DNA of 64,000 nt from Candidatus Saccharimonadales bacterium (GCA_035479135.1 DATIIY010000003.1:42302-106301); one strand, 5' to 3'. Numbered from the stretch's first letter, positions 15,971 to 58,844 are shown. Made by a program: numbers and translations. Notes: generated from the sequence alone by a model not told the origin.

Positions 15971-15999
15971 TCGCTTATTTTATCAAACAGCGTGAAAGT

Positions 16000-18161: not shown

Positions 18162-18231
18162 TAATAATTACTATATCAGACGAGAACTTTGCCTTGCCCG
18201 GCACCCAAAACAAAGCTACAATAAAGTTTTA

Positions 18232-22200: not shown

Positions 22201-22580
22201 CCTCAGCCGATTTTGCCAAAGCGGCTATTTTACCCGTAACCAGAGATCTACAAGGGCTAGGATTTAAAATAGTTGCCACCAAAGGTACGGCGACGTTTTT
22301 ACAGGACAACAAAATTAAAATCAATCAAACGGTTCCAAAAGTCAGTGAAAACAAAAACCAAAATATAGTTAAATTAATAAGTAGCGGCAAGGTAGAATTA
22401 GTTATCAATATCCCCAACACCGCCCGACATGCCAGCTCCGATGGATATCAAACCAGAAAAGCCGCCCTCGAAAACCATATAGCAATTGTCACCAGCGTGG
22501 CGGCCGCCAAAGCTGTAGTTCAGGCAATTAAAGAGTTCCGCAATAAAAAACAAGTCGTTAGATCGTTGCAATCTCAGTAA
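19299..22580 (+). CDS. carB: carbamoyl-phosphate synthase large subunit
   Basis: 1093 aa. Duplicated ATP-grasp halves ([24 protein letters not shown] and [19 protein letters not shown]) plus an MGS-like C-terminus. ATG overlaps the carA stop. Confidence 0.96.
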
Positions 22581-38555: not shown

Positions 38556-39266
38556 ATGGAGTATTCTAATTCGAATAAATCAGTGACCGGCAATCGACTG
38601 GTTTTAGTAGCTAGCTCACTCGCGCTAGTTGTCGGCAGTAAAAGCGCCAAAGCAATCCCTGAAGTCCCAGAACCCGTTAAACGGCCAAAGCCTGAGATAG
38701 CCCATACCCACGTGGGCAAGAAGGCAGTGGAGAGTTGTGCGCATTTTGCCCGAAAACTTGATTCAAAAGAAAAGGTTCAATTTGGTGCATATAAATTTTA
38801 TCTTAAGCGCGGATTGACACCTGCCCAATCGTCCGGCATTGGCGGAAACTTCGGGCAGGAAACTGACTGGAGCACTGATAACATCGCTCAATTTGGAGGC
38901 GACAGATTATCAGCCATGACTCGGTTTGCAGAGCGGCTGGGCAGAGCCCCGACATCTTTGACTGCTCAACTGAAATACACCTGGCTGGAATTGACCAATG
39001 GACCCGGCGCTGCCGAAGATGACAGAAGAGCTTTGAGAGATCTAAGGGCTTCCAATACGGTACGGGAGGCGGCTACCGTTTTTAGTAGTGAATATGAAAG
39101 GCCAGGGGATCCGCAATTGGAAAATCGAATATTGTACGGCAAACAAATCCTTCACAAATTCGGCCATTTAGCTTGTTCCGATCATACTGGTCCCAGGGCA
39201 CGGATAGCGCTACCAATTCAGGGCTCGACAACGACTGAGGCTACTCCGCATAGCTACGTTAATTGA
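38556..39266 (+). CDS. stand-alone phage-tail-lysozyme-like (lysozyme2-type) domain protein
   Basis: 236 aa. AGGAGG SD with a 5-nt spacer (TATAT) before the ATG, and an N-terminal hydrophobic segment. GLTPAQSSGIGGNFGQETDWS...YTWLELTNGPGAAEDD...FSSEYERPGDPQLENRI is clearly paralogous to the middle domain of the ORF at 57081-58844. Confidence 0.65.
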   Translation: MEYSNSNKSVTGNRLVLVASSLALVVGSKSAKAIPEVPEPVKRPKPEIAHTHVGKKAVESCAHFARKLDSKEKVQFGAYKFYLKRGLTPAQSSGIGGNFGQETDWSTDNIAQFGGDRLSAMTRFAERLGRAPTSLTAQLKYTWLELTNGPGAAEDDRRALRDLRASNTVREAATVFSSEYERPGDPQLENRILYGKQILHKFGHLACSDHTGPRARIALPIQGSTTTEATPHSYVN

Positions 39267-41326: not shown

Positions 41327-41416
41327 GGAAGGGTGTCCGAGCGGTTTAAGGAACTGGTCTTGAAAACCAGCATGCCAGCAATGGTATCGTGGGTTCGAAT
41401 CCCACCCCTTCCGCCA
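41327..41416 (+). tRNA. tRNA-Ser (anticodon TGA)
   Basis: GGAAGGG...CCCTTCC acceptor, anticodon stem-loop CTGGT-CTTGAAA-ACCAG, long variable arm, GGTTCGAATCC and an encoded CCA. Confidence 0.9.
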
Positions 41417-41449
41417 ATGTACGTTAAAATAGTGAAACAATTCAGATAA

Positions 41450-41542
41450 GGAGAGGTACCCAAGAGGCTGAAGGGGTCGGTTTGCTAAATCGATAGGGGG
41501 GAGCAATCCCCCGCGAGGGTTCGAATCCCTCTCTCTCCGCCA
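41450..41542 (+). tRNA. tRNA-Ser (anticodon GCT)
   Basis: GGAGAGG...CTCTCTCC acceptor, anticodon loop TTGCTAA, long variable arm (GGGGGGAGCAATCCCCC), GGTTCGAATCC and an encoded CCA. Confidence 0.9.
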
Positions 41543-42417: not shown

Positions 42418-42897
42418 ATGGCGCGACGCAATCAAGACGATGATCTTTTGCTTGAAGAAGATGAATTAACAGCGGCTTTTCTCGGTGATGAAGGCCCTGC
42501 TCCAGAGGGCGAAGCCGAACCGGCCGGAGCTTCTCCGGTCCCTGAAGATGAATGGGATGAAGACAATAATGTACCCGGCCAGTTGGCCGTCGATGTTTAT
42601 GAAACCAGGGAGAAATTAATCGTTAAGGCCCGCACCGCCGGTGTCAACAAAAGCGACCTGGATGTCAGTATTTCAGATAATCAATTAACAATCCGCGGCA
42701 CGCTTAGCTCCGGCAGCGAAAACGACGTCGAGAACTATTTCCTGCAGGAATGTTACTGGGGTGAATTTTCCCGAACTATCGCCTTACCAGTTCCCGTCAA
42801 AGAAGAAGAAATCGAAGCCGTACTCAAAGACGGCGTGCTAACCATTAGCTTCGGCAAAGTCCAACAGGACACTATCAAGAAGATCCAAGTCCTCTAG
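42418..42897 (+). CDS. Hsp20/alpha-crystallin family small heat-shock protein
   Basis: 159 aa. The alpha-crystallin domain carries DVYETREKLIVKA..GV, FSRTIALP and DGVLTI. Confidence 0.85.
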   Translation: MARRNQDDDLLLEEDELTAAFLGDEGPAPEGEAEPAGASPVPEDEWDEDNNVPGQLAVDVYETREKLIVKARTAGVNKSDLDVSISDNQLTIRGTLSSGSENDVENYFLQECYWGEFSRTIALPVPVKEEEIEAVLKDGVLTISFGKVQQDTIKKIQVL

Positions 42898-42916: not shown

Positions 42917-43378
42917 TTAGCCGCCTATGGTACCGTTTTGAACATTGTTCGATTGGTTAAGCACAAAGTGCACGATGAGTTGAGCCAGAGCTACTATAAT
43001 TAGACCAATTATGGCATAAATAAGTGTATTCTTAGCGCTGCCAACACGGCCAGAATCACCACCGGAAGTAATGTAGCGGAAGCCACCATAAATTATCATG
43101 ATTACAGAAACCGCGCCAACTATGATAGAAAATATCTTAACTATATTCTGGGCGATCTTACCGATGCTACTACTATCTACATTTGTTGAGTCACAGGTAA
43201 CACTGCCAGGTTGACCAGATGCTTGACTGGCACCATCAGCCACGTTATTTGCAATATTACTAGTACAACCTTCCGCGTTCGCTACACCAAGAGTTAGCGG
43301 AACAAGTCCTGGCGCCAATAGCGAAAGCATCATTATTAGTGGCAGAAAATAGCTTTTTATTTTTTGTGTCATATTCAA
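42917..43378 (-). CDS. T4SS pilin-like protein (VirB2/TrbC-like), paralog 1 of 6
   Basis: 153 aa. Signal/anchor, a variable region with 2 Cys, then a conserved TM hairpin (IIYGGFRYITSGGDSGRVGSAKNTLIYAIIGLIIVALAQLIV). Confidence 0.7.
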   Translation of the reverse strand: MNMTQKIKSYFLPLIMMLSLLAPGLVPLTLGVANAEGCTSNIANNVADGASQASGQPGSVTCDSTNVDSSSIGKIAQNIVKIFSIIVGAVSVIMIIYGGFRYITSGGDSGRVGSAKNTLIYAIIGLIIVALAQLIVHFVLNQSNNVQNGTIGG

Positions 43379-43459
43379 ACCTTTCTTTTCGATATCTGTC
43401 AGTTTATATCTTATTTATACTACATGTTTATGTTTAAAATCAAGATCTGCACATGTATG

Positions 43460-43930
43460 CTAATTCTTTACACATTTATTGGCTGATGAATCAAAATGTT
43501 GATTAACGCCACAATTATTTGTAACATTTGTTGACTGTGTAAGGATGAATGTAACCAGTAATTGAGCCAAAACTGCTATTGCCAGCCCAATTAATGCATA
43601 TATCAGAGTATTTTTGGCTGAACTTATCCTAGCAGAATCTCCACCGGATGTAATATATCTTAAACCGCTGTAGATTATCATAATTATTGCTGCCGCCCCG
43701 GTTATTATGCTTAGAATTTTCACTGCAGCACTAATTGTATTCGTAACACCGCTCCCATTACAGGTGTCGCCCGTTTCGCCAACACCGTTTAAAACTTGGT
43801 CTTTAGACGTTCCGGATGTTCCTCCACAAGCATAAGCCGATATTGGAGAGCTTAAATTGAGTCCAACTAGAGCTGTTAATAACAAGGCAGTTGGGATAAA
43901 AATTCGACGAAGATTATTTAAAAATTTCAT
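43460..43930 (-). CDS. T4SS pilin-like protein, paralog 2 of 6
   Basis: The start is trimmed to MKFLNNLRR, preceded by TAGGAG. Core IIYSGLRYITSGGDSARISSAKNTLIYALIGLAIAVLAQLLV. It has an extra C-terminal tail with a Cys pair. Confidence 0.7.
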   Translation of the reverse strand: MKFLNNLRRIFIPTALLLTALVGLNLSSPISAYACGGTSGTSKDQVLNGVGETGDTCNGSGVTNTISAAVKILSIITGAAAIIMIIYSGLRYITSGGDSARISSAKNTLIYALIGLAIAVLAQLLVTFILTQSTNVTNNCGVNQHFDSSANKCVKN

Positions 43931-43937
43931 ATAACTC

Positions 43938-44333
43938 CTAAAGTTTATTAACAACATAAGTTATTAAGCTCGACGCTAAAGCGATCACAAGTAGTCCAAT
44001 TATTGCCCCTGTTAGAGTGCTTTTGGCAGTGCCCACAGCATTGCTGTCCCCACCAGAAGTTATATATCGCAAGCCACTAATTATTATTAAAATCACTGCT
44101 GCTGCACCGGCGATATAGGCCACAATTTGGGTAATATCGTATAGCAAGCCGTTACTGCCGGAGATGGGGTCACTGGAGGTTTTGTCCTGGCAGACTGCAG
44201 AGGTTTTGTTAGTGCTGTCGCTACAATTAATTCCCGAGGGACCTCCAAAAGGGTCAAAAGCTAAAGCAGTTGTTGGCGTAGCAATAAAACATAGGCAAAG
44301 TAACATAATTGAACATAATAGTCGTCGTATCAT
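43938..44333 (-). CDS. T4SS pilin-like protein, paralog 3 of 6
   Basis: 131 aa. Signal peptide ending ALA-FD, 2 Cys, and core IISGLRYITSGGDSNAVGTAKSTLTGAIIGLLVIALA. Confidence 0.7.
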   Translation of the reverse strand: MIRRLLCSIMLLCLCFIATPTTALAFDPFGGPSGINCSDSTNKTSAVCQDKTSSDPISGSNGLLYDITQIVAYIAGAAAVILIIISGLRYITSGGDSNAVGTAKSTLTGAIIGLLVIALASSLITYVVNKL

Positions 44334-44626
44334 CCTACACGACTCCCCACGAAGAAAACTATTGATTCAGCTGCAATGGCGATAGTCAATCCAACTAATG
44401 AATAAACAATGCCATTCTTAGCCTTAGAAATCTTCTGCGGATCACCGGCAGCCACAATGTAACGCAGGCCTGATATGGTAATCATCAGAAGTGCCAAGGC
44501 ACCGGCAACTCCGAAAGCAATACCCAAAACCGTTGGAATAAATGAACCACCGCTAGTTACGTCAGGGTGTGGTAGACTGCGGCCACTGATTTCAGTACTA
44601 ACGATGGTGTTTATTATTGTTTCCAT
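44330..44626 (-). CDS. T4SS pilin-like protein, paralog 4 of 6
   Basis: 98 aa with no Cys. Core ISGLRYIVAAGDPQKISKAKNGIVYSLVGLTIAIAA. Has a 4-nt overlap with the next gene. Confidence 0.65.
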   Translation of the reverse strand: METIINTIVSTEISGRSLPHPDVTSGGSFIPTVLGIAFGVAGALALLMITISGLRYIVAAGDPQKISKAKNGIVYSLVGLTIAIAAESIVFFVGSRVG

Positions 44627-44627
44627 T

Positions 44628-45032
44628 TTATGACAGTTTATTACCTATAAATGATACTACAGCCACTGAAACCATGGCTATCGCCATCCCAATTAAGGCA
44701 TTTATAACGGTGCCTTGGGCTCTAGCAGTAGCCTCCGGATCACCCTGACTGGCAATGTACTTTATGGCTCCATAAAATACGAAGGCCACGGCCACAATTC
44801 CGGCAATGCGTAGTAAATCATCAACGACAGCCAACAAAATCAGAGGTAAATCACTGCCGCCAGCCGAGATAAAATTAAAGTTGGTATTTATGTTGCAAGC
44901 ATAAGTTACGCCGTTAACTGTTACTCCAAAATCTTTGTCAGGCAAGTAATGATACCAAGTTACCAGACCAAAGAAATCATGCCGACAACCAGCTGGAGCA
45001 GAAGCAAAATATAATAATTGCAGCCAAATCAT
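44628..45032 (-). CDS. T4SS pilin-like protein, paralog 5 of 6
   Basis: 134 aa. FFGLVTWYHYLP motif and core FYGAIKYIASQGDPEATARAQGTVINALIGMAIAMVS. Confidence 0.62.
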   Translation of the reverse strand: MIWLQLLYFASAPAGCRHDFFGLVTWYHYLPDKDFGVTVNGVTYACNINTNFNFISAGGSDLPLILLAVVDDLLRIAGIVAVAFVFYGAIKYIASQGDPEATARAQGTVINALIGMAIAMVSVAVVSFIGNKLS

Positions 45033-45051
45033 AATTTATACCTGCGTTTAT

Positions 45052-45621
45052 TCAATGTAAAAATCCTCCCGGCACTAAGAATTGCAAAAATCCGTATAAC
45101 AATGCGTAAGCGAAGATTGCGATAATCGTACCACTAATTCTATTCTTGGCGGATGAGGCCTTCTGCGGGTCACCTTCAGAAGTCGAAAATTGAATACCGC
45201 CAATAATCAATGAAATTACAGCAATTAAACCAAATATCGCTGTCAACAAATTAATTCCAGGATTAATGTACTTGGCTATCAGATCGCAGCTGTCAGCTGA
45301 GCAGTCGACCGCCGGGTCAGTGCCATCACCAATATCCCAACCTTGCTTACAACTGGTGCGCAAATTCTTATCCGGATAAGCAGAGGTGCTGCAAGCGCTA
45401 GTTTTAGATGTACCGCCAGCTTGGGCTTTCCACCCATGTTCGCAGGCTGCCTCATTGTCACCGCTTAGATTTAGCGGACTGCAAGCATTGCAAGCATTGG
45501 GGCTACCGCTTTTTGAGCAATCGGGGCTGGCAGACACAACTGACAAAGGCGCGATGAAAAACAAAGCCAAAAACAGAATTAAACTGCGTGCAAAATATGG
45601 CTTCAATATTTTTTGTATCAT
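45052..45621 (-). CDS. T4SS pilin-like protein with a Cys-rich ectodomain, paralog 6 of 6
   Basis: 189 aa. Signal peptide, a roughly 95-aa region with 10 Cys, then core IIGGIQFSTSEGDPQKASSAKNRISGTIIAIFAYALL. Confidence 0.62.
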   Translation of the reverse strand: MIQKILKPYFARSLILFLALFFIAPLSVVSASPDCSKSGSPNACNACSPLNLSGDNEAACEHGWKAQAGGTSKTSACSTSAYPDKNLRTSCKQGWDIGDGTDPAVDCSADSCDLIAKYINPGINLLTAIFGLIAVISLIIGGIQFSTSEGDPQKASSAKNRISGTIIAIFAYALLYGFLQFLVPGGFLH

Positions 45622-45707
45622 CTAGTAATGTTTAATTTTACGAATGTCTAAATCTATTATGTGGCTCCATATGCAAAAAAACAAGAGTACCGAAGTCTAA
45701 CCACTTA

Positions 45708-45716
45708 TGGTATATT
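45708..45716 (+). promoter_or_regulatory. candidate extended -10 promoter element for the T4SS operon
   Basis: TGGTATATT (a TGn + TATAAT-like element) ends 30 nt upstream of the ATG at 45746. No good -35. Confidence 0.35.
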
Positions 45717-45745
45717 GGTTAAGGTAATCTTTCAAAGATAAAAAC

Positions 45746-48568
45746 ATGTGGCGTAGACTGATCTACTTATTCCCCGTTGTACTGATCCTTGCTACTATTG
45801 GCGTGAATATTGTCCAGTCACCGAATGCCTTGGCTGCCACAACAGCAACAAGTTATTGCGACTCACAAGGTTTTGCTTCAAAAACTGGTGAGGATTACAA
45901 AGCCTGCCAGCACGGTTTCAACGGCAAAGTAGCTGGCACCAGCCAACAAGCAAGTTGTAAAAATGAAGGCGGTTCTGCCACAAACCAAGGTGATCCCAAG
46001 TATATATGTTATGTAGCTTGGTCGGTCGCAACAGTAGGCAATAAACCCGCACCAGTAGTCCAACCATATAAAAGTCCATCTGCTGCAGCTAAAAAAGCTT
46101 GCACTGGCTCAGACTCCCCAGTTTCAGGTGGAGATGCTGGTACGATTAATGCTTGTGAGCGCGGATATGATGGTGGCAAAAGCGGTAAAACACAGAGCCA
46201 AGCCTGTAGTGTCCTGGTCGGCGAATCAAAAACTACGGGCAATGCTGATGAATGCGGTATAGGTTGGGATCTGGCAACAGGCGCCCCAATTCCGGGTGCC
46301 AGCTCTAGAGGCAGCGGGAGTACTGGCAGTGGTAGCGATGCTTCTGCTGCTGCACCTACATTGGGCTGCGATACCAAGTTTACCAATCCGCTGACCTGGA
46401 TTATTTGTCCCGTTACGGATGTATTAGTACAAATTGTTGGCGCAATTGATAACGCCATTACTAACCAATTAAATATAAAAACAGATGCAATTTTTTGTAC
46501 AGATACTGATACTTGCCAAGCCTACTATTCAGCCTGGCAATCGTTTAGAAATATCGCTCTTGGTCTAATGGCCATCGCTGGTCTTATTATTGTAATTGCC
46601 CAAGCATTAGGTGTGGAGGTACTAGATGCCTACACTATTCGCAAAACATTACCAAGATTGCTAATTGTAGCAGTTGCAATAACGCTCTCATGGCCATTAA
46701 TGAAATTTCTGATTGATCTATCTGATGATTTGGGTTTTGGAGTTAGACATCTTATATATGCGCCATTTTCTCATTTGGGATCTGGACTTAATTTAGACTT
46801 TGGTGGAAATGCCGCCAATATATTCTTCGGTGGTTTGGGTTTTGCGGCAGTAACCGGAGCTGGTGTAGGAGCGGCGGCTTTTACCCTATTAGGCGGGATA
46901 GGTGCGCTTCTAGGTTATGCAGGTACGGCCGCTTTGGCAGTTTTCGTGGCAATCGTTGTGCTGATATTAAGACAAATAATAATAATTTTATTAATGCTTT
47001 TGGCTCCTGTAGCTTTGGTTGCTTACATCTTGCCTAATACTCAAAGGATTTATAGATTATGGGGTGATACTTTTCTGAGAGCACTTCTGATGTTTCCATT
47101 AATCTCAGCTCTAATAGCTACCGGTAGAGTATTTTCAGCTGTAGCAATTCATAATGGAGGGGCATTAAACCAACTGATTGGATTTGCAGCTTATTTTGCG
47201 CCATATTTCTTGATACCCTTGACTTTCAGAATGTCAGGTGCTGCTATTAATGGTGTTGGTAGCTTTGTAAATAGCCGAGCACAAGGTGGTTTCGAAGGAC
47301 TTCGCAAATTCCGCACCACCCGACGGCAGAAAGGCAGAGAACGAATATTGTCAGGCAATCTATTTAATAAGGCGCGAGAGGGTTCATACCGTCAAAAATT
47401 AAATCAGGCTTATCAGTCTGGTGGTTTGGGTTTGGCCAATACTGACCGGATGGGTAGTAACCCAATGAAATGGCGCAGAAATGCTCAACAATTACGCGAA
47501 ACAGCAAACCTGAATAACGCAGATAAGCTATTACAGTCAGAAGAATTTAAACCGTACGTGGGAGATGACGACTTTGCTAAGGCTGCCATGAACAGTGGCG
47601 GTAGCGTTGATAGCTTTAAGCGATACCTCAGAGAAACAGGTAAATTCAGTAACGCTGATATTGAACAAAAGGGTACCGGTTTTGAAATTATGCAGAGGAA
47701 ATTTGGTACACCTGCCCTTGAACAAGGTGCCTTTCAGAGTGCCCTTACAGCTAGCACGTTTCTTGCACCTGGGCAATCAGGCGAATTGCTTGATTATATT
47801 GATAAGCTATCTGGTGGCCGGTCTCAAACCCAAGCACAGCTAATTGCTAAAGCCAAAGACCTTGCTCCAAAAGCTGGCCGTGGAGATGTAGTAGCACCGT
47901 TTAGTGATATGATGGGGCAACTGAAGACAATTGGCGCAGCAACAACCCCTGCAGCCAGGGCAGCAGCTATACGCAATGCCTCCGAATTCCTTGCAGACAC
48001 TAACGAAGATGTAGAAGGTTCTGCCTACTGGTTTACCGGCAAGGGTAGAATGACTGAAGCCGGCATTCCTGCGATTCAACGTAAAATAAAGCGTGCTGCC
48101 AGTAATGTCGCAGCCATTAATCAAAACAACGGCCAACCTATAACAATAACTAGGTTAAACGGAAAGCAAGAAGTGTTGACTGAGGACCAGGCTCATAGAG
48201 AAATGAAACAAGTACTGGCTCAGGTTGCCGGTACATCAGACGTTTTACAGCAGGTATCGCCTGAGAAGCAGCGCCTGTTTGCCGAAGGTGTTCTTTCATG
48301 GCAAATCCCAGGTTTTAAATCTAATGTTATTCAAAATATCGACGACTTTAGTACCGATCCAGAATTTACTGAAACACGTAGCCGCTATGAGAGAAACATG
48401 GCGCAATCGATGCAAAGATCAGCTCAAGCGGAACAAGCAGCAGCACAAGCCGGAGCCAATATGACACCTGCGCAACGAGCTGCGTCAGAAGCTGCAGCGG
48501 CACAGGCAGCGGCAGACGCTGCCAGACAAATGGGCGGCGGTGATCCTAATGTCGGAGGACAACTGTAA
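45746..48568 (+). CDS. extended VirB6/TrbL-like polytopic membrane protein
   Basis: 940 aa. Signal peptide, a roughly 190-aa Cys-rich ectodomain, about 7-8 TM helices (residues about 215-500), and a roughly 440-aa soluble C-terminal extension ending in an Ala/Gln-rich tail. The call rests on architecture and operon position (first gene before PrgI/VirB4). Confidence 0.6.
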   Translation: MWRRLIYLFPVVLILATIGVNIVQSPNALAATTATSYCDSQGFASKTGEDYKACQHGFNGKVAGTSQQASCKNEGGSATNQGDPKYICYVAWSVATVGNKPAPVVQPYKSPSAAAKKACTGSDSPVSGGDAGTINACERGYDGGKSGKTQSQACSVLVGESKTTGNADECGIGWDLATGAPIPGASSRGSGSTGSGSDASAAAPTLGCDTKFTNPLTWIICPVTDVLVQIVGAIDNAITNQLNIKTDAIFCTDTDTCQAYYSAWQSFRNIALGLMAIAGLIIVIAQALGVEVLDAYTIRKTLPRLLIVAVAITLSWPLMKFLIDLSDDLGFGVRHLIYAPFSHLGSGLNLDFGGNAANIFFGGLGFAAVTGAGVGAAAFTLLGGIGALLGYAGTAALAVFVAIVVLILRQIIIILLMLLAPVALVAYILPNTQRIYRLWGDTFLRALLMFPLISALIATGRVFSAVAIHNGGALNQLIGFAAYFAPYFLIPLTFRMSGAAINGVGSFVNSRAQGGFEGLRKFRTTRRQKGRERILSGNLFNKAREGSYRQKLNQAYQSGGLGLANTDRMGSNPMKWRRNAQQLRETANLNNADKLLQSEEFKPYVGDDDFAKAAMNSGGSVDSFKRYLRETGKFSNADIEQKGTGFEIMQRKFGTPALEQGAFQSALTASTFLAPGQSGELLDYIDKLSGGRSQTQAQLIAKAKDLAPKAGRGDVVAPFSDMMGQLKTIGAATTPAARAAAIRNASEFLADTNEDVEGSAYWFTGKGRMTEAGIPAIQRKIKRAASNVAAINQNNGQPITITRLNGKQEVLTEDQAHREMKQVLAQVAGTSDVLQQVSPEKQRLFAEGVLSWQIPGFKSNVIQNIDDFSTDPEFTETRSRYERNMAQSMQRSAQAEQAAAQAGANMTPAQRAASEAAAAQAAADAARQMGGGDPNVGGQL

Positions 48569-49920: not shown

Positions 49921-51030
49921 GTGGCAACATACAAACTGATACAAGATATTGAGGCTGAGGATAAGATTCTGGGGCCGTTGACGCTGAGGCAGTTTATCTT
50001 CGCGATGATTGCCGTATTTTTATTTTATCTATGTTTTCTGGTAACCGTAAAGCATGTTGTTTTCTTACTAATTATATTTTTGCCGCCGGCGCTTTTCTTT
50101 GGGTTTTTTGCCTTACCGTTCGGTAGGGATCAGCCGACAGAGATCTGGTTTCTGGCTAAGTTGAGATTTTGGTTTAAGCCAAGGCGGCGAGTCTGGAATC
50201 AAAGCGGCCTCAAAGAACTGGTCGAAATCAATGTTCCCAAGAAATTGGTACACAATTACACCAACGGATTAAGCCAGCCGGAAGTGGAGAGCCGACTTAA
50301 AATTCTGGCTCAGACGATCGACAGCCGCGGGTGGGCAGTTAAACATGCTGTTAATAACACCTTCCAGCCGCCTGTTATAGTCGGCGGCGGTTCAGATCGT
50401 TTAATAGATATCGGCAGCATGCCACAAGAAGTTCCGGCCGATAATAGTGTTGTTTATAACGATGTTATGGATCCCGGCACCAGCCCAATTGCCCGCCAAT
50501 TCGATTCTATGATTGACGAGTCTGAAAAAACCCGGCGAGAGCAATTGGTGGAGCAGATGGATGGCGCTGTACGCTTACCACAGCGATTGCAGCAAGCCGC
50601 ATCTGGTCCAAGTGCGCCAAGTAGCAATTGGTTTATGCCAACGCCCGGGCCAACTCAGGGCGGGGGTTATACCGCTACACCGCTACCAGCCGCAGAAGTA
50701 GACTCGGCAGCCGAGGCCACCTTAGCAGCCGGGCTTTCACATCAGGCCAATACCCATCGGGCCTTCGGTAATTTGCGCACCTTGCAGCCTCTGTCAACTC
50801 GCAAAGCTTCGACCGTTTCAACTAATAACGGCTCTGTCACCGATGATAATTCAAGCCCTTCAGCGAGCGCGGTAGACCAAACTACACCGATGACAGCCCA
50901 GAGAGACCCTGCTATAATGTATCTGGCCACAAATAATGATTTAAATTTGTCTACTATCGCGCGAGAGGCCAATAAAAACAAGAGCAGTGCAGAAGCGTCT
51001 TCCAACGAGGTCGTAATTCCGCTGCATTAA
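49921..51030 (+). CDS. PrgI family (VirB3-like) membrane protein with a long disordered C-terminal extension
   Basis: 369 aa with a GTG start. The N-terminus (YKLIQDIEAEDKILGPLTLRQFIFAMIAVFLFYL) plus a second TM matches the PrgI-family pattern. The rest is low complexity. Confidence 0.62.
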   Translation: MATYKLIQDIEAEDKILGPLTLRQFIFAMIAVFLFYLCFLVTVKHVVFLLIIFLPPALFFGFFALPFGRDQPTEIWFLAKLRFWFKPRRRVWNQSGLKELVEINVPKKLVHNYTNGLSQPEVESRLKILAQTIDSRGWAVKHAVNNTFQPPVIVGGGSDRLIDIGSMPQEVPADNSVVYNDVMDPGTSPIARQFDSMIDESEKTRREQLVEQMDGAVRLPQRLQQAASGPSAPSSNWFMPTPGPTQGGGYTATPLPAAEVDSAAEATLAAGLSHQANTHRAFGNLRTLQPLSTRKASTVSTNNGSVTDDNSSPSASAVDQTTPMTAQRDPAIMYLATNNDLNLSTIAREANKNKSSAEASSNEVVIPLH

Positions 51031-51082: not shown

Positions 51083-52018
51083 ATGGATCCGTCGAGGCAA
51101 CCGATTCCAAACCAACAAAACCCAAATCAACAGGCTCAGTCTGACGCTTTAAGCTATTCAGCAAGTAATGCTCCGCCGCCGGCGCCGCTAATTCCCAACC
51201 AAATTGTTCCGCCGGTTCAAGACCCTAACGGCGGGCCCACGCCTCTGGCTATGCCCACGTCAGGCCGGATGCCGGCTAAACCCGCGCAGCAGCACCCCAA
51301 CAGCACCCAGAATTCTTTGCAAATCGCCGAAGTTCGTGACGGCATCGTGATAATGAGTGACGGCTCGTTTCGATCAGTCGTGATGGTCAAAAGCATCAAT
51401 TTTGATCTGATGAGCCCGCAGGAACAAGAGGCCGTAGAGTTTAGCTATCAGGGATTTTTGAATTCGCTTTATTTCCCCTTGCAAATTTTTATTCGATCTC
51501 AAAAAGTCGACCTCGCTCCTTACATCGATAAACTAGACAAAATACGAACAGAACACGATAACATGCTGCTGGCGCTACTTATGGAAGATTACATTGCGTT
51601 TATCGGTAATTTGGCGCAGCAGACCAATATTATGGATAAAAAATTCTATCTGGTGGTGCCGTTTTTCCCGGTCGTAGATGCTCAAAAAGCGTTGACTCAA
51701 AGTAAGAATTTCCTGGGCGGCATAGGCGGTTTATTTAACAAAAAAGAAGAACACGTCGTTATTAATGAAGCGGACCTCGAAAATGCTAAAACCGAGCTAC
51801 GCAACCGCGTCCAAGCGGTTTTGGCCGGGTTAATGCAGTCTGGAATTAAGGGCTTGCCGCTGGATACCGAGGAGTTAATCGAGCTATATTACGACACTTA
51901 TAATCCGGACACGGCCACCAGGCAGCAGCTTAAGGATTTCAGCGGTTTGACAGCTGACGTTATCACCAAGGGTGAAGGAGCCGCGCCCCAAGCCCACCTG
52001 AAGGGAGAGCTTCACTAA
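51083..52018 (+). CDS. VirB4 N-terminal-domain-like protein (separate ORF)
   Basis: 311 aa. An 80-aa Pro/Gln-rich leader is followed by IAEVRDGIVIMSDGSFRSVVMVKSINFDLMSPQEQEAVEFSYQGFLNSLYFPLQIFI, which resembles the N-terminus of Gram-positive VirB4/TrsE/PrgJ proteins. The stop overlaps the next start (TAATG). Confidence 0.5.
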   Translation: MDPSRQPIPNQQNPNQQAQSDALSYSASNAPPPAPLIPNQIVPPVQDPNGGPTPLAMPTSGRMPAKPAQQHPNSTQNSLQIAEVRDGIVIMSDGSFRSVVMVKSINFDLMSPQEQEAVEFSYQGFLNSLYFPLQIFIRSQKVDLAPYIDKLDKIRTEHDNMLLALLMEDYIAFIGNLAQQTNIMDKKFYLVVPFFPVVDAQKALTQSKNFLGGIGGLFNKKEEHVVINEADLENAKTELRNRVQAVLAGLMQSGIKGLPLDTEELIELYYDTYNPDTATRQQLKDFSGLTADVITKGEGAAPQAHLKGELH

Positions 52019-53964
52019 TGCTGGGCCGTAAGAAGCAGCCGCCTCCCGACCCGGTAGCGATTGCCAGAGCCCAGAGAGCCCGGGAAGAAATGGAGGTTCA
52101 GGCCGCCTTCCGCAAAGGCATCACTGCACTGCGGGATTTCATAGCGCCAAGTTCACTGGAGTTCAGTAACACTCATTTCCAGATTGGTACCCGTTACGCC
52201 AGGACCTATTATGTTTACGGCTATCCCCGACAGCTTTACACCGGCTGGCTGAGTGGACTGGTTAATCTGGATGAAATTGTCGATATGAGCATGTACGTTT
52301 ATCCGGTCGAAAGTCAGGTGGTGCTGGAAAACCTGCGGAAGAAAGTTACGCAACTTGAAGCCGGTATTCAGATCGAGGCCGAGAAAGGCCGAGTCCGAGA
52401 TCCGGGCAAAGAAGCGGCCATCATGGATGCCGAAGAAATGCGCGACAAACTGCAGGTTGGCGAAGAACGGTTCTTTAGATTCGGATTGTACTTCACATTG
52501 TATGCCGGCAGTCTTGACGAGTTGGAATTTATTTCTCACAAAGTTGAATCAATGCTCGGTCAGCAGCTGGTTTATAGTAAGGCCGCCACCTCTCAGCAAG
52601 AACAGGGGCTCAACAGCACTATTCCTCAATTAGTCGACCAGTTGCAGATTCGCCGCAACATGAGTACCGGGGCACTGAGCACCAGTTTTCCGTTTACCAG
52701 TGCGGATCTGAGTCAGGAAACCGGCATCTTGTATGGCATAAATATGCACAACTCCGGCTTGGTGATTTTCGATCGTTTCTCTCTGGAAAACGGTAATTCG
52801 GTGGTCTTCGCTAAATCCGGGGCCGGCAAAAGTTTTGCTGTTAAATTAGAAGCTCTGCGCTCCATGATGTTCGGCACCGAGATATTTATCATTGACCCTG
52901 AAAACGAGTATCAGCGGATGTGCGATGCGGTAGGCGGAGCCTATGTTCGCCTGAGCCTGAATTCGGCAACCAGAATAAATCCGTTTGACTTGCCCAAAGT
53001 CGTCGATACCGAGGAAGCTGACAACGCTCTGAGGAGCAACCTGATAACGCTGCACGGTTTACTACGATTAATGATGGGCGGCGCCCAGATCCAAATGGCC
53101 GGCGCCGGCGGTGTCATGGCACCGCCGTTAGCTCCCTCAGAAGAAGCTGATCTGGACGCCGCCCTGATCGAAACCTATGCCAAAGCCGGAATAACCAACG
53201 ATCCGCTAACTCACACCGGCACCCCACCGGCCATAAACGATCTTTATGACGTTTTGCTGCACATGGGTGGCACCGGGCCACAACTGGCCCAGCGATTGCG
53301 CAAGTACACTACTGGCACCTTCGCCGGAATTTTCTCGCAGCAAAGCAATATCGATATAAATAATCCGATGGTAGTTTTCAACTTGCGTGACCTGGAGGAT
53401 GAACTACGGCCAGTAGCCATGTACATCGTACTTAATTACGTCTGGAACAAAACCAAAACCGATCAGAAACGTCGCCTAATGATAGTCGATGAAGCCTGGC
53501 AACTTATGAAGTACGAAGATTCCGCCAATTTCCTGTTTTCGCTGGCCAAGCGGGCCCGCAAATACAACCTTGGGATCACCACGGTAACTCAGGATGTCGA
53601 GGATTTCATGGGCTCGCGGATGGGACGGGCAATTGTCGCCAACGCTTCCATGCAGTTTCTGATGAAACAGTCGCCTTCAGCCGTTGACGTTTTAACGGAT
53701 GTGTTCAAATTAACAGAGGAGGAGCGTAAACGGCTAAGTCAGTTCCCGGTCGGTCAGGGACTGTTTTTCGCCGGCCAAAACCACGTTCACATTCAAGTTG
53801 TGGCCAGTCCTACCGAAACCGGCCTGATCACTACCAACCCGGAAGAGGTTCAACAGATAGCGGCGGCCGAAGCCAGCGGCGAATTTGACCAGGCGCAGGG
53901 CACAATCGATTTAAACAATCGGCTAACGCCCGGCAGCACCGGCAATACGGCCAGTAGCGTATAA
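52018..53964 (+). CDS. virB4: VirB4-family type IV secretion ATPase
   Basis: 648 aa. Walker A FAKSGAGKSFAVK, Walker B RRLMIVDEAWQLM, and GITTVTQDVEDF. The upstream part (FIAPSSLEFSNTHFQIGTRYARTYYVYGYPRQ) is typical of the VirB4 middle region. Confidence 0.9.
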   Translation: MLGRKKQPPPDPVAIARAQRAREEMEVQAAFRKGITALRDFIAPSSLEFSNTHFQIGTRYARTYYVYGYPRQLYTGWLSGLVNLDEIVDMSMYVYPVESQVVLENLRKKVTQLEAGIQIEAEKGRVRDPGKEAAIMDAEEMRDKLQVGEERFFRFGLYFTLYAGSLDELEFISHKVESMLGQQLVYSKAATSQQEQGLNSTIPQLVDQLQIRRNMSTGALSTSFPFTSADLSQETGILYGINMHNSGLVIFDRFSLENGNSVVFAKSGAGKSFAVKLEALRSMMFGTEIFIIDPENEYQRMCDAVGGAYVRLSLNSATRINPFDLPKVVDTEEADNALRSNLITLHGLLRLMMGGAQIQMAGAGGVMAPPLAPSEEADLDAALIETYAKAGITNDPLTHTGTPPAINDLYDVLLHMGGTGPQLAQRLRKYTTGTFAGIFSQQSNIDINNPMVVFNLRDLEDELRPVAMYIVLNYVWNKTKTDQKRRLMIVDEAWQLMKYEDSANFLFSLAKRARKYNLGITTVTQDVEDFMGSRMGRAIVANASMQFLMKQSPSAVDVLTDVFKLTEEERKRLSQFPVGQGLFFAGQNHVHIQVVASPTETGLITTNPEEVQQIAAAEASGEFDQAQGTIDLNNRLTPGSTGNTASSV

Positions 53965-54003: not shown

Positions 54004-57000
54004 ATGGCAACACCCGCCAATCAAAGAGACCCGGTCTATGATGATGACCGATCGCCAGAACCGGTTAGACAACCCGATCTACGCCGGCTAGAAGGCATCG
54101 GAGGTAACACTGCCGGCGGTGGCACACGGGGTGCCAGCAGCAGCACGGGATCACAAGGAGGTGGCGCCTCTAATTCCACCAAAGCTTCGGCAGGCGGAGC
54201 CAGCGATCAAACCGGCGACACATCGGCCAAGCTAAATAACGCTGAAGAATCTACAGGCGACAACGATGACGAAGATGACGACAGTGACCGTGTTGGCAAA
54301 GGCTACACAGGCAACAACAATTCCACCAGCAGAGGCCGCGTCCGATTCCGGCTCACCCGAAAAAAAGCCGCCGTAGGCATCGGCTCCGTAGCTATAATTT
54401 CCGGGGTTATTGGCTTTTTTTCTATATCTACCGGCCCGCTGGAATTTATCCATATCGCTCAACTATTAGACCGCTTCCACTTCTCCAGCCAACAAGACGC
54501 CGAAGACGGCAGGTTAACTAAAATGGCCCGCTACCTGCATGACACCAATAAGCCGCAAAACACGCGGCTTGGACTTGTAGGCAATTCTGTAGCATCCAAG
54601 CTTGAAACTAAAATTAAAGACGCGACCGGATTAGAGCCGGAATTCAATGAAAAGTCTGGTAGATTCGTTGGTTATAATGGCGACCGGGCTCATGAAAACT
54701 TTAAAGGCAAGTCGGAAGCTGAGATAAAAAGTCAGATAGCAAACCAGACCGGTATTGATGGGATTAAAGTTTCTTTTTCTTCGGATGGCAAATCGTTCAG
54801 CTATAATCCTGACGCAGGTATACGCAATCCCGTTACTGCTTATAGAGTCCAGACTCGCACTGCGCGGGCCCAGCTGAGCGAGGCTGGATTATCCAAAGTT
54901 TCCCAACATGTCGGAAGCAGAATTCTAAGAACTCGAGCTGGGTGGACATTTCACCCCATCAAAAAGGCAGATGCAGCCCTTCAAGCCAAAGCTATCGAAA
55001 AGGGTGCCAAAGCTTATGAGCAATTCAAAGAAAAGCTAAAGCAGCAGTTTAACAAAGACGAAACGGCCTATATAGAAAACGGAGCAGTTGAAAAACCCGG
55101 CGGAGATCCCACTCGACAAAAAGAAACCGATACTAGTGGTAAAACCGTGGACACACCTGGATCGCAAGATACACAAGCGGGTGTAAATGGTGTTAAATCC
55201 GACACTCAAGGTGAAGACCCGGCAAATCCGCAAACTGTGGAGGATGCCAAAACCAGCCTAAAAGCCAAGGTTGGAGCCGGGGGTGCCAGTTTAATTGGGG
55301 TGATCTGCGTAATGAACAGCATTAATCATGAGATGCCGCAATTACGACAAGAAAAAGTTATGCTGCCGATGATGAGAATGGCTGGTGAAGCCATAAGTGT
55401 TGGCAGTCAAGTCCAGAGTGGACAAGACATTAGTGCTCTTCAACTTGGATTTTACAAGGACCAACTTGATGGTACAGATAGTACTGGCAAGACCTCCACT
55501 TGGAATCAAGCCCAAAGTATTCAAGCCGAGTTAGGGCAACCGCAATCCGGTACGGATGTACCAAAAGAAGGTCAAGTATTTAACGGAGATGTGCCTTTTG
55601 GCTTTTTGCAAGGTTCGATAGTAGATTCGGTTTGTGGTATTTTGGGAAGCACTTTTGGCCAGATTTTCTCGATTGTCACTGGACCAATCAGCTTCATTGC
55701 TTCGGCTATTACTGTCGGCCCAGCTACAAGCATTCTGGCAAACTGGTTATCCGGAGCCCCCATAAGTCCTTTGGCTGCCGGCGCAGACCGAGGAAATTAT
55801 ATTAATTACGGTGCGCGTTTGTCGGCCAATCAACAATATGCGTCAGCTGGTGGTGTACCGATGAACTCCAGCGATGAAGGGCAAGTGACTGCGATAGATA
55901 ACAGCTTCGATATGGCCGATTTCCAATCTCATGGTCTGGCTTATAGGCTTTTTAATACAAAAGATAGTCGTAGTTTAGTATCGCATTTGATTGATAGTGA
56001 GAGCGCTTCCGGACCAGTAGATAATATAGCAACTATGGTTCAGCACTTTGGTAGTATCTTCGGAGCTGCCTCAAGAGTGCCGGCCAGTCTATTATCGGGG
56101 GTCACTCATGCTGCTGGAACGACTTACAATTGGCATGGTCTCAATAAAATCGGTTTCACAGCAAGTGAATTAGGCAATCCTAGCGTCGATAACCCTTTTG
56201 ACAATGCCTGCCTTGTAGCAGGCGGTAACTGTAAATTAGCAAATGGTACGCTTGAACATACGGGTATTCTTGACGGCTCAAACGGTCAGCACTATATTGA
56301 TCTTGCCCACACTTGTTTCAATGCTACTATCACCAACGACCCCTCCACAGGTTGGCAAATCAATAATGCCAGCTCACTAAATCAAGAAGACGATAACTAT
56401 CGATCGCATGCTATTGAGTGCAGCAGCGATAGCGACGGGAACTGGTTACGTGTACGTTTCTGGTTACTCGACACAGCAACCATAGAAGGCTACGACTGTT
56501 ATCAAGGCGATACAGACACATCCGACCAATCTTGTAACGATGTCGGCGTCACACAGTCCAGTACAGCATCCGTATCAGCCGGGTCAAGCGATATCAGCGC
56601 TTATCAAAACCCTCTTCGGGATGTGATGAAAAACGGCAGCTTATTCCCACGACGCATAGATGAAGGCGTCGATTACGGGGGTCATGGCCCGATTTATGCC
56701 ATGGGCAACGGCGTAGTCACTTTTGCCGGTACTGGAGAATGGTTTGCTGCTTACGGCCAGTCGGTTGTTTATACATTAAGTGATGGCCCGGCTGCTGGAA
56801 AAAGCGTTTATTTCTCAGAAAGCTGTACTCCGACCGTCAAGGCCGGTGATCACGTTACTCCTTCAACCGTAATATGTAATATGAATGGAGATAACAGTCC
56901 TTGGATTGAAACAGGATGGGCGGTTGGAGGTACAGCCAATCAGGATATCCCATCGGCTCATATAGGTTACAATGAGTGCGCAACAGTATATGGAGCTAAC

Positions 57001-57096
57001 TATTCTGACCTTCTCAAAAAACTAGGTGCTCCCGGCGGAAAAATCGAGTGTGGCGGACCTGACGAGACACTGCCGGCAGGATGGCCGAAATGGTGA
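54004..57096 (+). CDS. large T4SS-associated membrane protein with a C-terminal degenerate LytM/M23-like domain
   Basis: 1030 aa. A 110-aa Gly/Ser/Asp-rich N-terminus, a TM (AAVGIGSVAIISGVIGFFSI), and further hydrophobic segments near residues 430 and 540-580. The C-terminal stretch IDEGVDYGGHGPIYAMGNGVVTFAG...VKAGDHVTPSTVI resembles the M23 barrel but lacks the HxxxD/HxH metal ligands. Confidence 0.5.
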   Translation: MATPANQRDPVYDDDRSPEPVRQPDLRRLEGIGGNTAGGGTRGASSSTGSQGGGASNSTKASAGGASDQTGDTSAKLNNAEESTGDNDDEDDDSDRVGKGYTGNNNSTSRGRVRFRLTRKKAAVGIGSVAIISGVIGFFSISTGPLEFIHIAQLLDRFHFSSQQDAEDGRLTKMARYLHDTNKPQNTRLGLVGNSVASKLETKIKDATGLEPEFNEKSGRFVGYNGDRAHENFKGKSEAEIKSQIANQTGIDGIKVSFSSDGKSFSYNPDAGIRNPVTAYRVQTRTARAQLSEAGLSKVSQHVGSRILRTRAGWTFHPIKKADAALQAKAIEKGAKAYEQFKEKLKQQFNKDETAYIENGAVEKPGGDPTRQKETDTSGKTVDTPGSQDTQAGVNGVKSDTQGEDPANPQTVEDAKTSLKAKVGAGGASLIGVICVMNSINHEMPQLRQEKVMLPMMRMAGEAISVGSQVQSGQDISALQLGFYKDQLDGTDSTGKTSTWNQAQSIQAELGQPQSGTDVPKEGQVFNGDVPFGFLQGSIVDSVCGILGSTFGQIFSIVTGPISFIASAITVGPATSILANWLSGAPISPLAAGADRGNYINYGARLSANQQYASAGGVPMNSSDEGQVTAIDNSFDMADFQSHGLAYRLFNTKDSRSLVSHLIDSESASGPVDNIATMVQHFGSIFGAASRVPASLLSGVTHAAGTTYNWHGLNKIGFTASELGNPSVDNPFDNACLVAGGNCKLANGTLEHTGILDGSNGQHYIDLAHTCFNATITNDPSTGWQINNASSLNQEDDNYRSHAIECSSDSDGNWLRVRFWLLDTATIEGYDCYQGDTDTSDQSCNDVGVTQSSTASVSAGSSDISAYQNPLRDVMKNGSLFPRRIDEGVDYGGHGPIYAMGNGVVTFAGTGEWFAAYGQSVVYTLSDGPAAGKSVYFSESCTPTVKAGDHVTPSTVICNMNGDNSPWIETGWAVGGTANQDIPSAHIGYNECATVYGANYSDLLKKLGAPGGKIECGGPDETLPAGWPKW

Positions 57097-58844
57097 GACG
57101 CACTTTATTATTACTAGCTTCAAGTGCATTTATAATTGTCCATTGTGCTTCGGCATTTGCAATGTCCGATACTCAAGCAAAATTGTTCCGTGAAAATATT
57201 AATTACTTTGATTCCGACGCTTGCGGTGCTAGTTCTTCTAGTAGTGTTACAGCCGGATCGGGCGCACCGGATGGTGCGACGTTTCCAAATTTAGACCCAA
57301 ACTCAATGGCAACCTCTATAGATAATTTTATTCAAAAAGAGAATTCAAACAGCGCGCTAAAGGGCCTTGGTTCTACGATTGTAGCCAGCGCTAAAAACTC
57401 GAATGTCAATCCGTTCTTAATAGTCGCTATTGCTCATAAAGAGTCAGGGCTAGCAGATCCGTCTGACTTTAATGTGAGTCATGGCAATAACTCTTTTGGC
57501 CGAGAAGCCACAAATAGCCAACCACATTTTGTTGGGAGTCATTTATGGTACAAGTGGTCATCTGTTAAGGCTAGCGTGGATTATACTGCTCCGGAAAACA
57601 AAGGAGCATCTGGCGGCGGAGACATGGCTACTTATTTGCGTACACAATATAACAGTTCAATTGATAAAAGCGATCTTGTTTCATTAATAATGCAATACGC
57701 CCCGCCTTCTGAAAACGATACCGCTCAATATACTAGTGACGTAAAAAGCTGGATAAAGGATATGGTAAGCGGTTCTAGTGGAGCAAGTTCTAGCACGTCG
57801 AGCTCATCAACAGCTAACACATGCGCATGCAACGGTTCAAGTACAGATCTTTCAGGTAGTGATAATCAGGAGAAGATATTTAATTACTTCATTGGAAAGG
57901 GGCTAAGTCCAGCTCAATCAGCCGGAATTGATGGTAATTTTGGCCAGGAATCAGGCTGGGATCCAAATGATAGTAATGGTTATTTAGGTCAGTGGGGAGG
58001 TAGTAGATTAACTGCCCTTGAGACCTTTGCCCAAAATCAAGGTACTCCGGTTAATGACTTGGGTGTGCAGCTTGATTATGTATGGTTGGAGTTAACTAAT
58101 GGTTCAGGTGCCGGTGAAGATGACTCAAAGGTATTAAGCGACTTGAAAAAAACAACCACTGCCACTGACGCGGCAACAATATTCAGTAAAGAGTACGAAA
58201 GACCCGGTGATCCCCAACTCCAAAATCGCATAGATTATGCAAATAATATTTTAAATAAATATGGCGGTAATTCCGCCGCGGGAGGTGGTACGGCGTCGAT
58301 GGGATGTAGCAATAGTGTAACTTGTACGAGTGGTGTTCCTGCAGGTACTAACGGTCTCAGTACAGTTCGGCAAAATGCCGTCTGCATTGCTCAACAGGAA
58401 TTGGCCTTATGGGATAGTAGAAAAATGACACCTGGTTTTCGTCCAAACTCATCTAATAGTTATACTAAATATAGCCAGAATGTTGAGGAGGAGTGGTGTG
58501 CAGATTTTGTAAGTTGGGTATACAATCAAGCTAACTTTCCTCTGCAAACAGGCTCTACTTGGCGCGTGCCGTTTGTACCTAATATACAATCAATTGGCGA
58601 GCAAAATAAAAACTTCCATTGGCATCCAGCAACCGCAGCGTACAATCCGAAGCCTGGTGATATTGCAATTCATGGCGATTCACACACCAATATTGTTACT
58701 GAGGTAAATGGCACTGCTGTTACTCTAATTGGGGGGGATCAGCATGCTGCGCCGCCAGGAGCTCCCAATGGTACAAGTGTAAGCAAGTATCAAATCTCCA
58801 GTTTTACTGGTGATGGAACCACAGGATACGTTTCACCGGACTAA
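57081..58844 (+). CDS. multidomain peptidoglycan hydrolase (VirB1/PrgK analogue): glucosaminidase-like + lysozyme2-like + CHAP
   Basis: 587 aa with a signal peptide. NPFLIVAIAHKESGL...GNNSFGRE is GH73/FlgJ-like. GLSPAQSAGIDGNFGQESGWDP...GQWGG is phage-tail-lysozyme-like. The C-terminal EWCADFVSWVY...GDIAIHGDSHTNIV is a CHAP Cys/His pair. Confidence 0.75.
   Translation: MAEMVRRTLLLLASSAFIIVHCASAFAMSDTQAKLFRENINYFDSDACGASSSSSVTAGSGAPDGATFPNLDPNSMATSIDNFIQKENSNSALKGLGSTIVASAKNSNVNPFLIVAIAHKESGLADPSDFNVSHGNNSFGREATNSQPHFVGSHLWYKWSSVKASVDYTAPENKGASGGGDMATYLRTQYNSSIDKSDLVSLIMQYAPPSENDTAQYTSDVKSWIKDMVSGSSGASSSTSSSSTANTCACNGSSTDLSGSDNQEKIFNYFIGKGLSPAQSAGIDGNFGQESGWDPNDSNGYLGQWGGSRLTALETFAQNQGTPVNDLGVQLDYVWLELTNGSGAGEDDSKVLSDLKKTTTATDAATIFSKEYERPGDPQLQNRIDYANNILNKYGGNSAAGGGTASMGCSNSVTCTSGVPAGTNGLSTVRQNAVCIAQQELALWDSRKMTPGFRPNSSNSYTKYSQNVEEEWCADFVSWVYNQANFPLQTGSTWRVPFVPNIQSIGEQNKNFHWHPATAAYNPKPGDIAIHGDSHTNIVTEVNGTAVTLIGGDQHAAPPGAPNGTSVSKYQISSFTGDGTTGYVSPD

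Follow-up and report, generated by a model that had tools for sequence, protein, structure and literature searches.

Tandem pilin genes linked to a chromosomal type IV secretion system (T4SS) have been described before. A 2018 preprint (McLean et al., 10.1101/258137) noted an array of four to six small signal-peptide proteins related to VirB2. In Southlakia epibionticum ML1, Wang et al. (2023, Cell, PMC10633639) reported six PF18895 genes, SEML1_0014-0019 (399, 558, 312, 381, 384 and 417 bp, their Table S1), each scored GD/ES/ES by transposon insertion sequencing (Tn-seq), i.e. essential at later time points. In 383 assemblies, Quinonero-Coronel et al. (2025, PMC12102498) found 441 arrays, which contain 2-11 pilin genes and have a within-array mean identity of 25%; they are most abundant in Saccharimonadia and Microgenomatia and lie near virB4, often near dnaA, and without a nearby relaxase. 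Their VirB4 phylogeny puts the patescibacterial systems beside the MPF_FATA class of mating-pair formation (MPF) systems, and a 2024 perspective (PMC11665869) calls the function of the Saccharibacteria T4SS "completely unknown". Here we analyse an array of this kind in a 64,000-nucleotide (nt) stretch of DNA, hereafter the window, from Candidatus Saccharimonadales bacterium (GCA_035479135.1, DATIIY010000003.1:42302-106301). It consists of six consecutive open reading frames (ORFs) on the minus strand at 42917-45621, which we name A-F in their order of transcription in the ORF listing (Table 1).

The array closely resembles that of S. epibionticum. Both comprise six tandem PF18895 genes divergent from a VirB6-like gene, the third gene is the shortest in each, and the gap before the last pilin gene is 83 nt in ML1 versus 87 nt in the window. 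SEML1_0001-0021 follow the same order as the window genes, namely dnaA-dnaN-recF, a gene for an immunoglobulin (Ig)-like protein, lysozyme, M23-like, VirB4, PrgI, VirB6-like, the pilins, hsp20, comFC and tRNA-Ser. The two differ in that they come from different species and families, with diverged sequences and pilin sizes of 132/185/103/126/127/138 amino acids (aa) in ML1 versus 189/134/98/131/156/151 aa in the window; essentiality has been measured only in ML1. The six genes very probably encode T4SS subunits orthologous to the ML1 array.

An initial annotation of this DNA had regarded the array as unusual. That holds relative to classical T4SSs; such arrays have, however, already been described in Saccharibacteria and Patescibacteria, and published work on the six-pilin array already covers both its copy number and the essential status of every gene. 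Where the accessible text of PMC12102498 and 10.1101/258137 discusses the copies, it treats them as variable paralogs. The comparisons below point instead to six distinct, non-redundant T4SS_pilin subunits of an origin-proximal, Gram-positive-type T4SS. Taking all parts of this reading together, we consider it the best overall explanation and a probable one. Within the portions of the array literature available to our search, we found no account of positional orthology, of pilin fusions or of an internal promoter-like element.

Positional orthology across related loci

We assembled 80 related Saccharimonadia loci whose VirB4 is 84-92% identical to that of the window, and searched their ORFs with a hidden Markov model (HMM) built from the six pilin cores. 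Pilins were found in 51 loci, and a VirB6-like gene was located in 40; counts of orthologs, cysteines and junctions refer to the 31 untruncated six-pilin loci. Six is the most frequent array size. The nearest cross-species relative lies at the same array position in 31/31 loci for A, B, C and F, compared to 26/31 for D and 19/31 for E, and the nearest cross-species relative of the remaining E copies is F. Core identity between species at the same position is 0.42-0.64, with F highest (0.64), versus 0.34 between paralogs within a genome. These data indicate that the six array positions, A-F, have a fixed order and are occupied by ancient orthologs.

The order is kept in all non-standard loci too. 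Natural fusions join B to C in six loci (L024, L037, L057, L059, L060 and L079) and A to B in two (L040 and L045). Such B+C fusions, four-helix proteins with two domains, make up 34 of the 120 best database homologs of pilin B (e.g. P0131 and P0139). Every additional copy in arrays of more than six genes is F-type, with two in L063 (1470-2344) and four in L064 (602-2590), and an F-like copy occupies the E position in L040, L045, L057 and L059.

The initial annotation described the N-terminal regions of the six proteins as unrelated and hypervariable. They are indeed unrelated between paralogs in the window genome, but hypervariability across genomes is confined to A, whose ectodomain ranges from 52 to 250 aa and from 1 to 12 Cys. 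The ectodomains of B, D, E and F hold position-specific motifs across species, such as C..FFGLxPWYHYL..C in B, and a pair of cysteines is present in F in 31/31 loci, in B in 27/31, in E in 25/31 and in D in 18/31. In the window, A combines a signal peptide, a long Cys-rich ectodomain (7 Cys) and the two-helix core with a C-terminal motif, FLQFLVPGG; B carries LLAVVDDLLRIAG where helix 1 begins; and C is short, with neither signal peptide nor Cys. D and F each have a signal peptide and a 2-Cys ectodomain, F being the most conserved copy, and E adds a 2-Cys C-terminal tail to the same arrangement. Cysteine totals for A-F are 8, 2, 0, 5, 4 and 2, so that the earlier list of "0, 2, 4 or 10" needs correcting, the maximum being 8; three of the five in D sit in the signal peptide, and the four in E divide 2+2.

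The pilins evolve much faster than VirB4, and their ectodomains change 2-3 times faster than their cores (nonsynonymous divergence, dN, 0.35-1.9 versus 0.22-0.6). We also considered the ratio of nonsynonymous to synonymous divergence in ectodomain versus core, and discarded it: synonymous sites are saturated even against the closest species (proportion of synonymous differences, pS, 0.6-1.0), so only dN is comparable and nothing can be said about positive selection.

Could the six be switchable variants, that is, alternative versions of one major pilin serving antigenic variation or host-strain adaptation? In Bartonella Trw (TrwL) and Anaplasma phagocytophilum, too, a single T4SS locus contains several VirB2 genes that are tandem and diverged. 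Those paralogs are lineage-specific amplifications, thought to give surface variation. Low core identity within the array (about 34%), the fast-changing ectodomains, the size range of the A ectodomain and the amplification of F-type copies in some species would all suit such a role, and it is by analogy with Bartonella and Anaplasma that Quinonero-Coronel et al. (PMC12102498) proposed host-range or antigenic versatility for these arrays. On the other hand, unlike in the Bartonella Trw type, five of the six window positions are fixed orthologs and only F-type copy number varies. Order and positional orthology are preserved over 31 species, as are position-specific motifs and cysteine pairs, and neighbouring paralogs are fused in some loci. 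Individual essentiality of all six in S. epibionticum would be unexpected for alternatives of one function. No repeats or invertible elements were noticed on reading the array sequence, in which no dedicated repeat search was made. The suggestion of switching for host range or antigenic variation, also put forward in the initial annotation, thus sits poorly with six genes whose order and identity are fixed across species, and we consider it improbable.

Fixed order, positional orthology, fusions and tight packing instead favour a fixed heteromeric assembly. From the fusions and tight packing, together with individual essentiality, it follows that neighbouring paralogs probably cooperate in fixed proportion and with the same membrane orientation. 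The fusions (B+C and A+B) and the packing of A-E also lend indirect support to the heteropolymeric filament that the initial annotation envisaged. No copy looks decayed, given cross-species positional orthologs in 31 species and an ortholog of each copy scored essential in S. epibionticum.

Gene junctions and the E-F intergenic region

Six consecutive minus-strand ORFs are present where the initial annotation had placed them, with revised starts for two. The longest ORFs would begin at 43957 for E and at a TTG, 43378, for F. Both starts are probably wrong, because an AGGAG ribosome-binding site precedes the ATG at 43930 (E) and GAAAGG precedes the ATG at 43372 (F), and because independent gene calls on the identical public contig give 156 aa for E and 151 aa for F. 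With these starts, the gaps A-B, B-C, C-D, D-E and E-F are +19, +1, -4, +7 and +87 nt, the largest having previously been put at +81. Pilin C starts 1 nt past the B stop, and the start of D overlaps the C stop by 4 nt. Pilin B is 100% identical to an NCBI protein with locus tag VLF79_01370, and F to the NCBI entry 'MAG TPA: pilin [Candidatus Saccharimonadales bacterium]'.

Similar spacing is seen in the related loci. Median gaps are -1 nt for A-B, -1 nt for B-C, -4 nt for C-D and +8 nt for D-E, compared to 71 nt (range 44-122) for E-F. Within this last gap, the pattern TTGNNN-N15-19-NTATAA occurs in 31/31 loci, where background density would predict 0.3 sites; GAAAGG-N4-14-ATG occurs in 29/31. 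The corresponding promoter-like element in the window comprises a -35 box TTGATT (43443-43438), an 18-nt spacer, a -10 box TATAAA (43419-43414) and the GAAAGG ribosome-binding site (43385-43380).

Of the six, F is the best candidate for a bulk subunit, because it has a separate promoter-like element, the highest conservation, and copy-number change confined to its type. By comparison of sequences, then, F is possibly the subunit that makes up most of the structure. The fuller division of labour, with F as major subunit and A-E as an accessory complex, we put forward tentatively, as somewhat short of an even chance.

Family membership, fold and alternative readings

An alignment of the six proteins shows a core of ~70 residues made of two hydrophobic helices and a short polar loop. 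The core motif, [GA][LFI][RKQ][YF][IS]x[SA]xGD[SP]x5A[KQ], occurs six times when all 64 kb are translated in six frames, with one occurrence per pilin gene and none outside them; the form given in the initial annotation needs the single change that its first position is A, not G, in B. An HMM of the pilin core likewise retrieves exactly the six array ORFs within the window.

All six genes belong to the Pfam family T4SS_pilin. Each exceeds the PF18895 gathering cutoff of 26.6 bits, with scores of 32.6-59.9 bits and E values of 2e-8 (A), 8.7e-8 (B), 1.8e-11 (C), 5.5e-11 (D), 2.4e-12 (E) and 2.6e-16 (F), and identical public proteins carry precomputed PF18895 matches. For PF04956 (TrbC/VirB2), with a cutoff of 27.9 bits, D scores 26.9 bits (E 5.6e-6), F 23.6 and E 20.4 (E up to 6e-4), and many homologs have precomputed PF04956 matches. 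Pfam profile searches therefore do find the shared core pilin-like, and together with the neighbouring PrgI, VirB4 and TrbL_3 genes they uphold the identification of the six as VirB2-like pilin paralogs of a T4SS.

Agrobacterium VirB2 and RP4 TrbC share with the window proteins small size, a signal peptide, two hydrophobic helices with a short loop, and a place beside VirB3, VirB4 and VirB6 homologs. The classical systems are diderm, with one copy and a VirB5 minor pilin, whereas the window has six copies in a monoderm-type T4SS in which no VirB5 was detected, and homology by hhalign is non-significant. Homology of the six pilins to classical VirB2 is plausible. An AlphaFold2 (AF2) model of F, built on a 58-sequence alignment, is a helical hairpin (H67-102, H107-146; mean predicted local distance difference test, pLDDT, 70.5), and in the model of a natural B+C fusion a disordered linker of 20-25 residues connects two hairpins (pLDDT ~70). 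In a Foldseek search with F, the archaeal conjugation pilin 8dfu of A. pernix ranked 5th (E 3.5, TM score 0.62 on the target). We set the fold search aside as a confirmation of pilin identity, its matches being non-significant and of the helical-hairpin type, which carries little fold-search signal.

Several results weigh against reading the six as distinct pilin subunits with F as the major one. No pilin reaches the PF04956 cutoff, and A, B and C have no match to that family. A PDB sequence search with the 58-sequence F profile gave no match even at E 10, and Foldseek searches of the PDB with the AF2 models of F and the B+C fusion gave nothing at E <= 0.001, the best E being 1.1-1.5. Against seven annotated MPF_T plasmid VirB2/TrbC proteins, hhalign returned E 0.06-0.08 and a probability <1%, with the helices in register and both alignments shallow. 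A generic sigma-70 and terminator scan of the region gave counts not above those of shuffled sequence and left the E-F element unlisted, because its -10 box ends in A; the element emerged solely from cross-species comparison, and to call it a promoter is to interpret conservation. The Tn-seq calls in ML1 are based on 11-15 insertion sites per gene, with polar effects possible (PMC10633639). Finally, in the literature searched, no filament of these proteins has been reported for any Saccharibacterium, and no structural or biochemical study of such a filament was found. The Pam pili of Mycosynbacter (2026 preprint) were considered and put aside; they are a different pilus, of Ig fold and assembled by donor-strand exchange, and the T4SS is not mentioned there.

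Because neither fold nor profile-profile comparison connected the six significantly with solved or bona fide VirB2 pilins, one might suppose that they are a generic two-transmembrane family, unrelated to the T4SS and adjacent to it by chance. The placement of the array says otherwise. Array and virB4 operon lie on opposite strands in 51/51 pilin-bearing loci, the array is directly upstream of the VirB6-like gene in 40/40 loci where that gene was located, and its placement in S. epibionticum is the same. More broadly, a pilin gene lies near virB4 in 1135 of the 1,948 surveyed assemblies that have both VirB4 and a VirB2-like pilin (PMC12102498). The PF04956 similarity, with E down to 5.6e-6 and precomputed matches on many homologs, points the same way. 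Conserved linkage effectively refutes chance adjacency, to which we assign next to no weight.

Scarcely better placed is the idea that the genes encode small secreted effectors delivered to the host. A transcriptome study of TM7x labelled them 'six putative effector genes', half of which rise in stable symbiosis, and most copies do carry signal peptides. Each copy, however, has a terminal pair of long hydrophobic helices, as integral membrane hairpins typically do; all match the pilin family, and C lacks a signal peptide. We therefore regard delivery as effectors as very improbable.

The main rival is that the proteins do not build an extended pilus but belong to a membrane-embedded channel or platform, much as VirB2 has a role in substrate transfer that does not depend on the pilus. 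Pili are normally absent from Gram-positive T4SSs, and the absence of any reported filament is in keeping with this. So is C, which has neither signal peptide nor ectodomain, and the four-helix B+C fusions would fit poorly into a simple helical lattice of one subunit. Structure-based matches, moreover, are to generic helical hairpins such as ATP synthase subunit c. Surface exposure is nevertheless indicated by the signal peptides and disulfide-bearing ectodomains of A, D, E and F; a conserved, separately promoted F suits a bulk structural subunit; and at family level the relation is to pilins (PF18895, with PF04956 just sub-threshold). On balance we judge a channel or platform unlikely, though less so than the other alternatives.

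Chromosomal setting and proposed assembly

Divergently from A runs an operon that encodes, in order, the VirB6-like protein, a 419-aa protein, the PrgI/VirB3-like protein, a 311-aa protein, VirB4, a 1030-aa protein, a lysozyme+CHAP protein and an Ig-like protein; recF, dnaN and dnaA lie beyond. The distance from the pilin array is 125 nt to the VirB6-like gene and 6.4 kb to virB4. Precomputed annotation of a protein identical to the 940-aa VirB6-like product gives PF19590 TrbL_3, while our scan assigned it no Pfam family at E <= 0.1, a mismatch that may reflect Pfam versions or thresholds; the gene is syntenic with SEML1_0013, whose structure-based match is TrbL/VirB6. The 1030-aa and 587-aa hydrolases are syntenic with SEML1_0007 and SEML1_0006, and the 587-aa lysozyme/CHAP protein can be considered analogous to VirB1/PrgK.

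Table 1. Location of the pilin genes and other features in the window
Feature	Position	Strand	Description
Pilin A	45621-45052	minus	189 aa, first gene of the array
Pilin B	45032-44628	minus	134 aa
Pilin C	44626-44330	minus	98 aa, shortest copy
Pilin D	44333-43938	minus	131 aa
Pilin E	43930-43460	minus	156 aa, closest paralog of F (45% identity)
Pilin F	43372-42917	minus	151 aa, last gene of the array
E-F intergenic region, promoter-like element	43373-43459	minus	cross-species conservation
Divergent intergenic region, pilin A/VirB6-like operon	45622-45745	.	presumed site of both operon promoters
VirB6/TrbL-like polytopic membrane protein	45746-48568	plus	940 aa, Cys-rich N-terminal ectodomain
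PrgI/VirB3-like protein	49921-51030	plus	369 aa, PF12666 PrgI E 5.9e-11
VirB4-type ATPase	52018-53964	plus	648 aa, P-loop_TraG E 1.6e-28, AAA_10 E 1.1e-12
Two cell-wall hydrolase-type proteins	54004-58844	plus	1030 aa, weak M23; 587 aa, Phage_lysozyme2 + CHAP
dnaA	62079-63488
hsp20	42418-42897	plus	convergent to pilin F, 19 nt from its end
Two adjacent tRNA-Ser genes	41327-41542	plus	anticodons tga and gct; beside the comF-type gene
Second Phage_lysozyme2 protein	38556-39266	plus	236 aa, E 4e-19
Arginine and carAB genes	13509-22580		argJ, argC-like semialdehyde dehydrogenase, acetylornithine aminotransferase, amino-acid kinase/NAT, carAB

A chromosomal T4SS of this type is conserved across Saccharimonadia. 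With the MPF_FATA systems (pCF10 Prg and ICEBs1 Con) it shares PrgI-like, VirB4, VirB6/PrgH-like and PrgK-like hydrolase genes. Those systems differ in lacking VirB2-like pilins and in having a coupling protein and a relaxase, neither of which was detected in Pfam scans of the 55 ORFs of at least 98 aa in the window.

Several features of the flanks were recorded alongside. In relatives, TATAGT-type -10 boxes are found on both strands of the region between A and the VirB6-like operon, and in many of them (L001, L002, L023, L024, L029, L033, L035, L041 and others) a TATAGT or TATAAT box lies ~8 nt before the pilin A ATG, which suggests a leaderless or near-leaderless A-E mRNA. Upstream of pilin A in the window itself, no clear counterpart of this near-ATG box was seen.

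A repeated C-x-x-G-[WFY] module is common to the pilin A ectodomain (45300-45530) and the N-terminus of the VirB6-like protein (45850-46300), with BLASTP E values of 3e-5 and 2e-4. Co-variation of such a Cys-rich module in the two proteins was considered as a general trait and dismissed: own-locus matches were found in only 6/40 loci and are significant in the window only, those in other loci all being insignificant. Among related loci, 2/40 have the motif itself in the A ectodomain and 9/40 in the VirB6-like N-terminus. The similarity is lineage-specific.

On the far side of the array, the convergent hsp20 gene is kept in 22/23 related loci whose flank is long enough to show it, and also in S. 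epibionticum (SEML1_0020, scored essential). This placement may simply be conserved origin-proximal synteny, or may mark a chaperone link. After hsp20 come a comF-type gene and the two tRNA-Ser genes, matching the tRNA-Ser after comFC in S. epibionticum. A distance of ~18 kb separates the second Phage_lysozyme2 gene from the T4SS hydrolase gene with that domain. Elsewhere the window contains ordinary chromosomal genes, including polA, rpoD, dnaG, argS, arginine biosynthesis genes, carAB and groEL, among others. The arginine cluster is notable, because the usual description of Saccharibacteria is that they do not synthesise amino acids de novo.

How might the six subunits work together? As distinct subunits of one machine, the pilins would each form a helical hairpin on insertion in the membrane. 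Signal peptides would serve A, D, E and F, with their disulfide-bearing ectodomains facing outward and the charged loop, GLRYITSGGDSxxxxxAKN, on the cytoplasmic side. A-E would be produced in near-equal amounts from one tightly packed and probably translationally coupled operon. F would additionally be transcribed from its own conserved promoter, and would for that reason probably be the abundant subunit. The machine of VirB4, VirB3-like and VirB6-like proteins, with the adjacent cell-wall hydrolases, would then extract the subunits and build from them a heteromeric pilus or wall-spanning conduit of fixed composition. The bulk of this structure would be F, and A-E would form a defined accessory complex (tip, base or priming), with the variable, Cys-rich ectodomain of A as the candidate part for host contact.

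Type IV pili (PilA with FimU/PilVWXE) and type II secretion (GspG with GspHIJK) offer a functional analogy. There, too, a conserved set of several diverged paralogs of one fold is required in full, the accessory set is encoded in a tight operon, and the bulk subunit is separately controlled; the fold is unrelated and the assembly machine different. In its strongest form, the proposal is that the array specifies the first known VirB2-type pilus or conduit of fixed, specialised subunits, with F as separately promoted major subunit, A-E as an equimolar accessory complex whose members lie side by side, as the natural A+B and B+C fusions suggest, serving as an essential host-contact or uptake device of a monoderm epibiont. 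We regard that full statement as doubtful, more so than the division between F and A-E taken by itself. Were it true, the array would be the conjugative-pilin counterpart, by analogy, of the major/minor logic of type IV pili.

In kind, the system in the window is not new. What the comparisons contribute beyond the published arrays is the positional orthology, the fusions, the close packing of A-E and the promoter-like element, by which a vague picture of "variable pilins" becomes a testable model for a T4SS that is essential for the epibiotic lifestyle, and that its pilin array sets apart from other T4SSs of the Gram-positive type.

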